Virus record (IMG/VR): IMGVR_UViG_2879731240_000008
DNA length: 54,820 nt
Source of the DNA: a virus
Lineage: Duplodnaviria; Heunggongvirae; Uroviricota; Caudoviricetes
Strand: one strand, 5' to 3'
Positions 27,001-30,000 of the stretch are shown one piece after another. Position 1 is the stretch's first letter, and each line of letters opens with the position of its first letter. The position numbers are program-made.

Positions 27001-30000
27001 GCCTGCGGCAATCAGCGCCAGAACAGCAGCCGACAGGCCGTATTTGATTTTTGCGCTCATGGATATTTATCAGGATTTATCGGCAACAAATAACGAGCCA
27101 ACTTATATACGCCTTTTAAGATAAGTCAGCCCCGGCTGGATCCAGTCATCAGGCTCTTTCTTAAAGGGGGAGTATTGAAATCACGAAGAAGAGCCTCCCG
27201 CACCGCAGCATCCATGTCTGCACCACTGGCAAGTGCTTCAATCTCTGCCGCCACCTGCAAATACCCCATGCAACGGCCAATGCGTTTCATAACTCTGGTG
27301 TTTTCGTCTTTCAGGCATCTGATAGCGAGATTAATAATTTTCAGGCAGTGATGATGCGATGCCCGGACAGGTTTTCCGTTCTCATAAACGACGAACTCAC
27401 CCTCTTCACAGGAAACCCTGAAAGGCCGATGGGGTTCCTGGTCTTTATCCGGTGCAGACGCAATAAAATCACTTTTATGCTCTTCCTCTCCGGCACTGTT
27501 AACCGTAATGACGTACTCAGGCCGCAGGTAAGCCGCCTCTTTTTCTGACAATGCGGCCGGTAAAAACTTTTCCTGCAAAAACTTCATAAAAGTCTCGTGA
27601 GCGACTTTGTGGCAGTAATCGTAAATCGCCGCATAATGCTCATCGCGGCGTTTGTTTTCATCTTCAGAACTCACCAACGCCGACAATTTTTTATTAAGCT
27701 CAGTGATTTCATTTTCCAGGTGATTGAATCGCTGATTCATTTCTTCATGCTTCATTATTTACTCTCCCCGTGCAGCCTTACGCTTGTCTTCTCTTATTTT
27801 GAAATACAGATTCGTCAGATAAGTCAGAAGCCCCAGAAGCAGACTTCCCAGCACACCAATCGCAGCCCACTGTGATGGCCTGACCTGATCCAACCACTGC
27901 AAAAACCAGTAGCCGGCACTGCCGGCGGAGGTGCCGTAGGCAATGCCCGTTGAAATTTTGTCCATGGATTTCATAGCCTCACCTCCGCAAATAACGGATG
28001 GCGTAGTTTTACACTGAGAAATGAAAGGGATTTGAAAAGAAAAAAACGCAAAAGCGGGCGAAACGATATATACAGTAAGGAAAGCACTCTATCCAACAAA
28101 CCACCCACAGTTAATCGGAATAAAAGCAGAGTGCTTATGAATGATCGCACGCCCGAAGGTTAGTATTTCTGCACAGCAATTTTGCAAAAAAAGGCGATCA
28201 TTCATAACTTAAACGTCTTTCAGTCACTCCGGGATTTCCCATCATCGCAGACTGAAAGACTCTGACTGGAGCGGGCAGCGGGAATCGAACCCGCATCATC
28301 AGCTTGGAAGGCTGAGGTAATAGCCATTATACGATGCCCGCATATGGTGCCGACTACCGGAATCGAACTGGTGACCTACTGATTACAAGTCAGTTGCTCT
28401 GCCTGCTGAGCTAAGTCGGCGCTGGCCCACCACCGAGGACTCGAACCTCGCACCGTCAACTTAGAAGGTTGATGCTCTATCCGGATGAGCTAGTGGTGGT
28501 TGGTGGCCCTTGCTGGACTTGAACCAGCGACCTGGCGATTATGAGTCGCTCGCTCTGACCAACTGAGCTAAAGGGCCGGAGGCAGAATAATAACCATATG
28601 TCATCACATCTGCAAACTCATCTGACCACCAGCGTGTTTAACGTCCTGTACCGTTTTTCAGGCATAAAAAACCCGCCCGGAGGCGGGTTTAAGCTGTGTG
28701 GCGAAGCAACCACTCTTAACAGAATATCCCGTTTTTTACGTACGTAAAATATTTTCTAGAAAGTCGCCCCTTACCATCAGGGATGTTCAATATATTTGTC
28801 CATTTCTAACCGGACACCCAACATCATCAACATTCCTTCCACCACCCCCTCGGCTTTTTGTAGCTTCTTTCCTATATAACCATCTGAGCATCCATGCTTC
28901 CGCGCCAGCGTCATGAATGTCATCCCAAACACGTAGTAGTCAACCAGCAAGTCATGTAGATCGTTGTTGTTCCGGTTAAGGCGGGCCATACACCCACATA
29001 TAACCATCGCGTCATCGTCACAGCATTGCGGGCGGGATTTTACTTTTGAAGGGATTAATCCCTTAAAACCGGCAGCAATGGACGACCAGGTCACATCCTC
29101 ATGATTATTAGCCACCCACGCGCCCCAGCGCTCAAGAACCTGCTGAATATCACGCATCACTGTCTTTACCCCTGTCCCATCCACGATGAACAATCAGAAC
29201 ACCATCAACAATGGCGTGCCCTTTGCCCTCTTTATCTTCAGCATATTTTCTTACCGTGGCGCGATTACAGTTCAGCATTCGTGAAACTTCGGTCATATTA
29301 CCTCGTGTCTGGATAAGCAGTTCCGGTATCGTTTGAATTTTGACGCTCATCAAATACTCTCCGGTTCGGTGATTTTTATCCCGGGCTTTCCACCAGGGAC
29401 ATAATGATCGCGCACAAGCCAGGGCAAAACAAACTCATGGCGCATCAGCGCAGCGCCTCCTGCACCAGTTTTTCAAACTTTCCGACTCTGGTTTCCAGCT
29501 CTGCCACACAGTCCACCAGCTCATCTACTGCTTTCTGTGCGCGATGCTTCGCCTGCATCAGTTCCCGAAGCGCGGGTACCATATCTTTACGGATAGCATC
29601 TTTTGTTATGCCCGTTTTTTCGAGTTGTTCAGCATGACGCAGCATTTCCTGCGCGTGTTTACGCAATTGTTCAGGGGTAAAAGTCATTGTCTGGTTGTTC
29701 AAAAGAAACGCTCCATCTTACTGCTGTCAGTTCGTTTATTACTGTATCTGCGCGGATTGCCGGGCTTCATGGGAGTGGAAAGCACCCGTGCACTTTCCTG
29801 GTCCACAGGCAGAAAATGTCCGTTATAAAAACGCCGGTAAATCGTTCCCAGAGAACCGTTACGTTGTTTCGTGATATTGATTTCTGCGATGCCCCTGGCC
29901 TGCGTATCCGGGTTGTACACTTCATCCCTGTAAAGCATCAGAATGATGTCTGCATCCGCCTCTATTTCTCCGGAATTTTTCAGGTCTGAGTTCATGGGAC

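Follow-up and report, generated by a model that had tools for sequence, protein, structure and literature searches.

A four-gene tRNA cassette between Q and the lysis genes of a defective, ipaH-carrying lambda-like prophage

Genes for tRNAs downstream of the late antiterminator gene Q have long been known in lambda-like phages. In Shiga toxin 2 (Stx2) phages such as Stx2a_F349 and those of the 933W type, an ileZ-argN-argO cassette follows Q and a terminator and precedes the toxin and lysis genes, and in SfI, Sf6, P21, ST64T and HK446, lambdoid phages of Shigella, Escherichia coli and Salmonella, Asn(GUU) and Thr(UGU) genes fill the same slot between Q and S. For SfI, Thr(UGU) after Q has been described together with a bias for ACA codons (PMC3636060). 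The 54,820-nucleotide stretch of DNA analysed here (IMG/VR record IMGVR_UViG_2879731240_000008, hereafter the window) carries four compactly arranged tRNA genes, Ile2-Arg-Thr-Gly, in the corresponding place. The array is already annotated in public genomes, and in this sense the finding is an ordinary one; no paper on the cassette, its promoter or its link with ipaH was found in the literature searched.

The reading that we consider probable is that the array is a codon-supply cassette, late-region cargo that adds dosage of tRNAs for over-used codons and is transcribed from a σ70 promoter of its own. As such it would be cargo of the Q-to-lysis region of a lambda-like prophage that is now defective and riddled with insertion sequences (ISs). 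It would provide extra dosage of tRNAs reading AUA, AGA/AGG, ACA/ACG and GGA/GGG, and the added dosage would increase the decoding capacity for codons over-represented in prophage genes, in ipaH and in genes of the virulence plasmid (pINV). The sequences themselves show intact cloverleaf genes, kinship with host and phage tRNAs, a codon excess, a conserved promoter layout and the pattern of occurrence; activity of the promoter, charging and modification of the tRNAs like those of their host counterparts, and any bearing of the added dosage on fitness or virulence are what we infer.

Composition of the tRNA array

At 28267-28577, ARAGORN, run on the window, calls four minus-strand tRNA genes, which are transcribed in the order Ile2(CAU)-Arg(UCU)-Thr(UGU)-Gly(UCC) (Table 1). 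Against the Rfam family RF00005 (gathering score 29) they reach bit scores of 70.5, 56.4, 69.8 and 64.9, respectively, with E-values of 1.5e-9 to 2e-13, so that all four have cloverleaves above the gathering score, and the ARAGORN cloverleaves agree. The genes are separated by spacers of 1, 2 and 3 nt in transcription order, each encodes its CCA end, and a 100% identical cluster is annotated as tRNA-Ile/Arg/Thr/Gly in RefSeq. These are real, intact tRNA genes, and chance is not an issue. A preliminary description of the window had placed four tRNAs with these anticodons between Q and the holin gene, which both programs bear out; it had also questioned whether the Thr and Arg candidates are functional, and neither of these is rejected by ARAGORN.

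Both doubts prove unfounded on closer comparison. The Thr gene is identical to K-12 thrU at 74 of 76 positions, the differences being U16C and U20C, both in the D loop. The A52·C62 mismatch in its T stem, on which the first doubt rested, does exist, but it is found identically in thrU and is therefore the native state of a working host tRNA. The Arg gene does begin with C1, the ground for the second doubt, but this base pairs with G72, as in argN of Stx phages; its acceptor stem is wholly Watson-Crick and its other stems are fully paired. Defective Thr or Arg genes can thus be ruled out, the one peculiarity being native to thrU and the other paired and family-wide. The Gly gene is identical to K-12 glyT over all 75 positions.

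The gene with a CAT anticodon, which ARAGORN labels 'Met', shares ~90% identity and the anticodon loop CTCATAA with K-12 ileX and is near-identical to ileZ of Stx phages. These similarities, together with the RefSeq label tRNA-Ile, rule out a Met or fMet tRNA. Its acceptor stem (GGCCCTT/AAGGGCC) contains the pairs C4-G69 and C5-G68, which TilS uses in tRNA-Ile2. The gene therefore has a CAU anticodon on an Ile2 body, and its C34 would be expected to be converted to lysidine, as in the host counterpart. An A27·C43 mismatch, not flagged in the preliminary description, tops the anticodon stem; ileX has G·U there, and A27·C43 occurs in all ileZ-type genes.

With argU the Arg gene shares only ~70% identity, although it retains that gene's anticodon loop as well as A20 and G73; with Stx2-phage argN, which likewise starts with C1, the identity is 79-83%. 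The identity set for the E. coli arginyl-tRNA synthetase consists of A20, C35, U36 and a purine at position 73. The Arg gene presents this set, with a D loop ATCCGGATA containing A20, the anticodon TCT and G73, and its product is predicted to be acceptable to the E. coli enzyme.

Judged from these alignments, the array joins two tRNAs of phage lineage, an ileZ-type Ile2 and an Arg on the argN scaffold, to two derived from the host, thrU and glyT. The latter are neighbours in the host tufB operon (thrU-tyrU-glyT-thrT). The TAT spacer between Thr and Gly (28342-28344) matches this operon in that T is the first base after thrU and AT the last two before glyT (positions 965-972 and 1170-1173 of the extracted thrU-tyrU-glyT locus). 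The spacer would be compatible with capture of the pair from the host followed by deletion of tyrU, a weak hint from only three bases.

Table 1. Positions of the tRNA genes, transcription signals and other features in the window
Feature	Position	Strand	Basis
tRNA-Ile2 (gene anticodon CAT), ileZ type, predicted to read AUA after lysidine modification	28501-28577	-	ARAGORN 'Met'(cat), Rfam, ileX/ileZ alignment
tRNA-Arg(UCU), scaffold of the Stx-phage argN family, reads AGA/AGG	28423-28499	-	ARAGORN, Rfam, argU/argN alignment
tRNA-Thr(UGU), host thrU with two D-loop changes	28345-28420	-	ARAGORN, Rfam, thrU alignment
tRNA-Gly(UCC), same as host glyT	28267-28341	-	ARAGORN, Rfam, glyT alignment
σ70 promoter-like element TTGCAG-17 nt-TATTAT, G+C-rich discriminator (TCTGCCTCC)	28587-28615	-	consensus scan
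Intrinsic terminator AAACCCGCC-UCCG-GGCGGGUUU then U run, tR' position between Q and tRNAs	28664-28690	-	fold and sequence reading
13-bp hairpin directly after tRNA-Gly, without proper U tract	28215-28260	-	centroid -22.5 kcal/mol, z only -0.99
Late antiterminator Q, 126 aa, distant Q21-family relative; upstream border of slot	28777-29157	-	Pfam PF06530 E 4e-54
Class II S21-type (P21-type) holin, first lysis gene; downstream border of slot	27759-27974	-	Pfam PF04971 E 5.5e-35; annotation in enteroinvasive E. coli
Second, decayed copy: leader and promoter, Ile2 (35578-35653), first 26 nt of Arg (35567-35542)	35542-35752	-	self-BLAST
Intact ipaH, beyond tail fibres	1060-2823	+	
Portal gene, split	20881-21504 and 21419-22474		
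Two ~1,265-bp IS copies (IS600-like)	24864-26128 and 47778-49042		
Two IS1-size copies, in inverted orientation	31985-32745 and 37518-38279		
IS2 transposase	41118-42023		
176-bp inverted repeat pair	26130-26305 and 38280-38455		
Group II intron	33708-35005	+	
Reverse transcriptase/maturase open reading frame (ORF) of the intron	33708-34847	+	Pfam RVT_1, GIIM
Group II intron domain V/VI RNA	34919-35005		Rfam RF00029, 64.9 bits
Pieces of a different phage's packaging/head module	39928-47538	+	
Host gene dcuC	52286-53773		

Promoter and terminators of the array

A distance of 9 nt separates the promoter-like element from the point where mature tRNA-Ile2 begins (its 5′ end), and the consensus scan flags the same site in the Stx2 phage F349. 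Its conservation was surveyed in 122 instances of ileZ-type tRNAs, which represent 49 distinct upstream sequences. The arrangement TTGNNN-16..18-TANNNT-5..12 nt-tRNA is present in 46 of these 49 contexts; within the 46, TATTAT, a 17-nt spacer and a distance of 9 nt to the tRNA each recur 44 times, and the spacer itself takes 15 different sequences. Hexamers and spacing are thus kept while the spacer drifts, which is the pattern of a real σ70 promoter. In addition, the element accompanies the cassette downstream of unrelated genes, which encode a DUF1133 protein, a DNA methyltransferase and four different proteins of the Q or antiterminator type.

Upstream of the promoter-like element lies an intrinsic terminator with a 9-bp stem (centroid -17 kcal/mol, z -3.3 against shuffles), which is tR′-like by position only. 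Since the σ70 element lies downstream of this terminator and is kept behind unrelated genes, expression of the tRNAs is probably independent of Q. The conserved promoter is not pR′ itself: it follows the terminator and travels with the cassette behind unrelated Q types and a methyltransferase, and in a Stx2 phage a TTGACA promoter-like site and a hairpin stand apart from it, beside Q. The pR′ of the window's Q was sought by eye and by scan in the 87 nt between the Q stop codon and the terminator, where no convincing site was found.

In combination, these findings lead us to think that the cassette probably has its own σ70 promoter, with expression in the absence of Q and even from a dead prophage; the promoter of its own that is expected of a moron-type element is indicated here on comparative grounds only (46/49 contexts, 15 spacers). 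Transcription would most likely start at this promoter, and the tRNAs could be produced in a lysogen, even one whose prophage is dead. In an inducible phage, late transcription antiterminated by Q would add to the output of the cassette. RNase P would then cleave the polycistronic precursor, with trimming in the spacers of 1-3 nt.

The 3′ side of the array is less clear-cut. The hairpin directly after tRNA-Gly, conserved in the two commonest downstream families, is possibly a weak terminator or an element for processing or stability. A weak CGC-UUUU-GCG motif followed by U7 lies near 28040, between tRNA-Gly and the holin gene. Searches of the leader and trailer for other RNA families returned sub-threshold noise only.

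Codon usage and distribution of the array

Codon demand was assessed by comparing 28 prophage genes plus ipaH (8,791 codons) with 39 K-12 core genes (14,574 codons), using odds ratios within codon families. AGG (9.3), AGA (5.3), CGG (4.3), ATA (3.1) and CAG (2.8) head the ranking, and GGG (2.5), ACA (2.2), GGA (1.9) and ACG (1.75) follow lower down; the excess has p<=1e-5 for AGG, AGA, ATA, GGG, ACA, GGA and ACG. By the wobble rules the four tRNAs would read AUA (lysidine 34), AGA/AGG and GGA/GGG (mnm5U34) and ACA/ACG/ACU (cmo5U34). Five of the top seven over-represented codons belong to this eight-codon set (hypergeometric p 2e-4). Usage in ipaH exceeds that in the K-12 core genes for each of the four A-ending codons, at 8.5 versus 2.9 per 1000 codons for ATA, 13.7 versus 0.8 for AGA, 13.7 versus 5.2 for ACA and 8.5 versus 7.1 for GGA. 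The pINV genes of an enteroinvasive E. coli (EIEC) strain go further, with 65 ATA and 23 AGA per 1000 in virF and 32 ACA and 21 GGA per 1000 in ipgB2.

The preliminary description had proposed that the four tRNAs all decode A-ending codons that are rare in enterobacterial core genes and common in AT-rich acquired genes such as ipaH. The first part stands in so far as ipaH and the prophage use the corresponding codons more than core genes do, but ACA and GGA are low-usage rather than rare in the host, and the prophage also over-uses the G-ending rare codons AGG, CGG and GGG. Likewise, the AT-rich rationale fits ipaH, with a G+C content at third codon positions (GC3) of 0.49, and the pINV genes (0.24-0.46), but not the prophage structural genes, whose GC3 of 0.60 compares with 0.57 in the host. 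Codon supply is quantitatively supported, and the 'A-ending, AT-rich' wording covers only part of it.

Of 5,426 complete E. coli genomes, 603 contain at least 80% of the 311-bp array, in most cases with a tRNA of Lys(UUU) anticodon as the second gene (slot 2), and it occurs in isolated phages such as vB_EcoS-689R5, PhiR47_1 and phi467; an identical Thr gene is found in an LT-IIb prophage record. The earlier remark that Thr and Gly beside Ile/Arg are less usual is therefore mistaken. A set of 128 loci with the slot-2 T arm in common was drawn from IMG/VR and species-representative genomes, and 93 of them are Ile2-X-Thr-Gly arrays. Ile2-Lys(UUU)-Thr-Gly is found at 70 loci and the window type, Ile2-Arg(UCU)-Thr-Gly, at 23, followed by Ile2-Lys-Arg (6), Ile2-Arg (5), Ile2-Lys-Lys-Gly (4) and the Stx2-type Ile2-Arg(UCG)-Arg(UCU) (2). 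The Arg(UCU) form of slot 2 is restricted to 16 of the 5,426 complete genomes. On this comparison, the cassette is very common in E. coli prophages, and the window carries a minority allele of it.

The allele that is 100% identical to the window's Arg(UCU) occurs in 10 of the 5,426 genomes, in 2-5 copies each. These are exactly the 10 ipaH-positive (EIEC) genomes, and the allele is found in none of the other 5,416. In EIEC strain CFSAN029787, a second prophage has the same four tRNAs behind a DNA methyltransferase. Scaffolds are shared more widely than anticodons: across related prophages, slot 2 bears UCU, UCG (Stx2 argN), UUU (the majority form, with C33 and U73) or, at three loci, UAU; the thrU body bears a UUU anticodon in six instances in sister prophages; and in FDAARGOS_943 a glyT body has a TAC anticodon ('Val'), lacks one acceptor base and ends in CAA instead of CCA.

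A more far-reaching version of the codon-supply reading, which we regard as possible but doubtful, is that a stringent-type σ70 unit, transcribed independently rather than as a late gene under Q, has been kept and multiplied in Shigella and EIEC to support translation of a virulence regulon rich in AUA, AGA, ACA and GGA, its slots evolving by anticodon switching. The regulon would comprise VirF, effectors of the type III secretion system and IpaH, and the 2-5 copies would be carried one per ipaH-type prophage and survive prophage death. If switching on fixed scaffolds does occur, it would retune which codons, or which nuclease-targeted tRNAs, receive backup. If the conserved promoter is real, a dead prophage could still alter the host tRNA pool. 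The association merits attention, since the exact allele perfectly tracks ipaH-positive invasive E. coli and Shigella in several copies, and the virulence genes of these bacteria are extreme users of the codons concerned. The sister cassettes, with different anticodons on the same scaffolds, constitute a natural series for tRNA identity shifts, which could separate codon supply from anti-tRNase backup as the reason why temperate phages carry tRNAs.

Such backup has to be weighed for the window as well. The cassette might replace host tRNAs cut by abortive-infection tRNases during the growth of a lambdoid phage, P2 OLD, the classic excluder of lambda, being the prime candidate nuclease and PrrC, PARIS and colicin D others. 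Two of the four array tRNAs, Thr(UGU) and Gly(UCC), are the first two targets listed for P2 OLD, a striking overlap, and HK97 and HK542 were rescued by Thr(UGU) tRNAs of viral origin, among them the one from lambdoid phage HK446 (bioRxiv 10.64898/2026.07.10.737580). HK446 carries its Asn and Thr(UGU) tRNAs in the same pR′-to-S slot, and the Lys(UUU)-anticodon tRNA of the sister arrays has an odd C33, tRNA-Lys being a target of PrrC and PARIS (PMC10264068, PMC11464382). However, over-expression of E. coli's own Thr(UGU) had no effect, cleavage-resistant viral variants being needed (bioRxiv 10.64898/2026.07.10.737580). The protective Thr tRNAs of HK446 and T4 differ throughout the anticodon stem, where OLD cuts after nucleotides 27-29, whereas the array Gly equals glyT and the array Thr departs from thrU only at D-loop positions 16 and 20, so that both have the anticodon arms of their host counterparts. 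Anticodon-loop mutations, the proposed signature of nuclease evasion (PMC10264068), are absent as well, all four loops being equal to those of the host cognates; departures in the anticodon arms are limited to the Arg stem and pair 27-43 of Ile2. The array thus shows no difference of the kind expected of nuclease-evading tRNAs, in the part that is recognised or cut. Replacement of tRNAs cleaved by OLD is not favoured, given host-type Thr and Gly in the cleaved arm and the lack of rescue by host Thr(UGU), and we judge a counter-defence role of the window cassette to be quite improbable. It would be more plausible for the sister cassette with UUU and the unusual C33 in slot 2.

The codon-supply reading also has to be set against a role in recombination. 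Homology between otherwise unrelated prophages begins within tens of nucleotides of the cassette and stops at its 3′ edge, and the genes found directly upstream of the cassette are of at least six kinds, those downstream of several holin types, as though it were a homology patch at the border of the Q/nin and lysis modules that mainly serves module shuffling among lambdoid phages or as an attachment target, with tRNA function secondary. Yet a homology patch needs no intact cloverleaves, compensatory changes, encoded CCA ends or conserved promoter; the idea accounts for the mosaic borders as a by-product and leaves the choice of anticodons unexplained. This explanation appears very unlikely indeed.

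Prophage setting and known relatives

The window represents an S. flexneri-like host genome with a lambda-like, ipaH-carrying and defective prophage. It is colinear with the prophage beside mlrA/yehV in CFSAN029787; positions 25752-32745 are 99.76% identical to Shigella flexneri SFBU1023, and a 1.2-kb region shares 99.9% identity with EIEC genomes. Read along the minus strand, replication genes and ninH are followed by Q, terminator, tRNAs, holin gene, a 209-aa ORF, lysozyme gene, Rz, and head and tail genes. Q matches the Q21 chains of PDB entries 6P18 and 6JNX (E 3.9e-8) and is labelled 'antiterminator Q family protein' in the colinear EIEC genome. The early region is cut by IS1, after which no immunity or integrase region follows; beyond it, IS fragments, a group II intron and parts of another phage are patched together.

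Several side observations concern this rearranged part of the window. The 176-bp stretch adjoining the IS at the Rz end recurs, inverted and with 100% identity, alongside an IS1 copy at a distance of 12 kb, which points to breakage of the prophage by an IS-mediated inversion or rearrangement. The foreign packaging and head pieces, interrupted by IS2, comprise a PBSX-type terminase large subunit, a HI1409-family portal-like protein and an SPP1 gp7-like minor capsid protein, and sit between the IS patchwork and dcuC.

This state of the prophage raises the question of whether the cassette is idle baggage, a neutral relic that has stayed intact through recent spread and whose link with ipaH is hitch-hiking. 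The prophage is indeed defective, with its split portal gene, the IS600-like element at 24864-26128, IS1 at 31985-32745 and no immunity or integrase region after it; the 99.9% identity of the 1.2-kb region to EIEC genomes leaves little time for decay; and a second copy in the window is already broken, while the FDAARGOS_943 copy is mutated. Against this, nucleotide diversity is only 0.011-0.014 in the cassette, compared with 0.30-0.41 in 150-nt flanks that are often non-homologous, and this low value of ~0.01 holds across many prophage backbones with unrelated flanks. Compensatory acceptor-stem changes among homologues (A3-U70 versus G3-C70 in slot 2, C6-G67 versus U6-A67 in Gly) and the conserved promoter likewise speak against a neutral passenger, as does the presence of 2-5 copies in every ipaH-positive genome despite heavy IS-mediated erosion nearby. 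We therefore hold the neutral explanation to be rather unlikely.

The second copy is 91.5% identical to the intact one over 211 bp, and its Ile2 (35578-35653) is the fifth tRNA called in the window. It has a 5-nt insertion between promoter and tRNA, its Ile2 has a rewritten 3′ acceptor strand (GGGAC-TCC...) and scores 59.8 bits in Rfam compared with 70.5 for the intact gene, and its Arg gene is cut at 35542 by IS-derived DNA. It represents what is left of a further prophage belonging to this family. A different locus, in S. flexneri SFBU1023, matches the intact cluster and leader (28266-28671) at 98.5%, and the stretch around the second copy (35542-36172) at only 91%.

A number of points weigh against codon supply as the explanation of the array. 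ACA and GGA are enriched only modestly, ~2-fold, and at GC3 0.60 the structural genes of the prophage cannot be called AT-rich. CGG ranks third among the over-represented codons and is outside the cassette's reach, and the host baseline consists of 39 K-12 genes only. CGG is the codon that argN(UCG) of Stx phages would read. The commonest sister array carries a Lys(UUU)-anticodon tRNA in place of Arg(UCU), and AAA, at 32.9 per 1000 in the K-12 sample, is not rare, so that codon compensation cannot explain every member of the family. No convincing terminator separates tRNA-Gly from the holin gene (27975-28266), a difficulty if the promoter is constitutive. Mere physical linkage on one prophage family may account for the co-distribution with ipaH, and the decaying copies, in the window and in FDAARGOS_943, mean that not every copy is under selection.

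With these reservations, the cassette can be compared with its known relatives. Like the window array, the Stx2-phage cassette begins with an ileZ-type Ile2 behind a promoter-like element at 9 nt, there TTGCAA-17-TATTAT, and its second gene is built on the same scaffold (79-83% identity, C1-G72). Slot 2 reads CGA/CGG (UCG) in Stx2 argN, whereas it reads AGA (UCU) in the window, which is without argO and toxin genes and continues instead with Thr(UGU) and Gly(UCC) of host origin. The Stx2 phage has a clean terminator after argO; none follows the last tRNA of the window. In Stx2a_F349, a TTGACA promoter-like site and a hairpin, read by eye, come directly after Q; ~190 nt beyond them is the cassette promoter, and a terminator stands between argO and stx2A (elements at 1117-1200, 1386-1414 and 1682-1699 of the extracted locus). 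The Stx2 tRNA cassette accordingly looks like a separate transcription unit.

A second relative is the Ile2-'Lys'(UUU)-Thr-Gly cassette of many E. coli prophages and phages (phi467, vB_EcoS-689R5, PhiR47_1, APEC O1, IHE3034 and others), the majority form of the cassette, which is ~94.5% identical over all 311 bp and has the same order, spacers and downstream S21-type holin gene. It differs in slot 2 (UUU, the unusual C33 and U73, compared with UCU, U33 and G73 in the window), in its Thr, which is identical to thrU and lacks C16 and C20, and at three positions in the D and T loops of Ile2. The tight T4 cluster makes the same anticodon choice, Gly(UCC), Thr(UGU) and Ile(CAU), all for A-ending codons. 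It also carries Arg(UCU). T4 is, however, virulent and has eight tRNAs, whose sequences are only ~79-82% similar to those of the window and are not host-identical copies. The Asn-Thr phages share the Q-to-S slot but have no Ile2, Arg or Gly; the Thr of HK446 has an unrelated scaffold, differing throughout the stems, and is reported to be resistant to OLD (bioRxiv 10.64898/2026.07.10.737580). Compared with the host tufB operon, from which Thr (74/76) and Gly (75/75) are recognisable, the cassette lacks tyrU and thrT, its flanks are unrelated, and the pair stands in a prophage behind phage-type tRNAs. The array has the same-strand position between Q with its terminator and the lysis genes, and the succession of ileZ and an argN-scaffold tRNA, that characterize lambdoid late-region cassettes, and it lacks the combination of argN(UCG) and argO(UCU). 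By sequence and position, it is thus a lambdoid late-region tRNA cassette in kind, but not the ileZ-argN-argO set.

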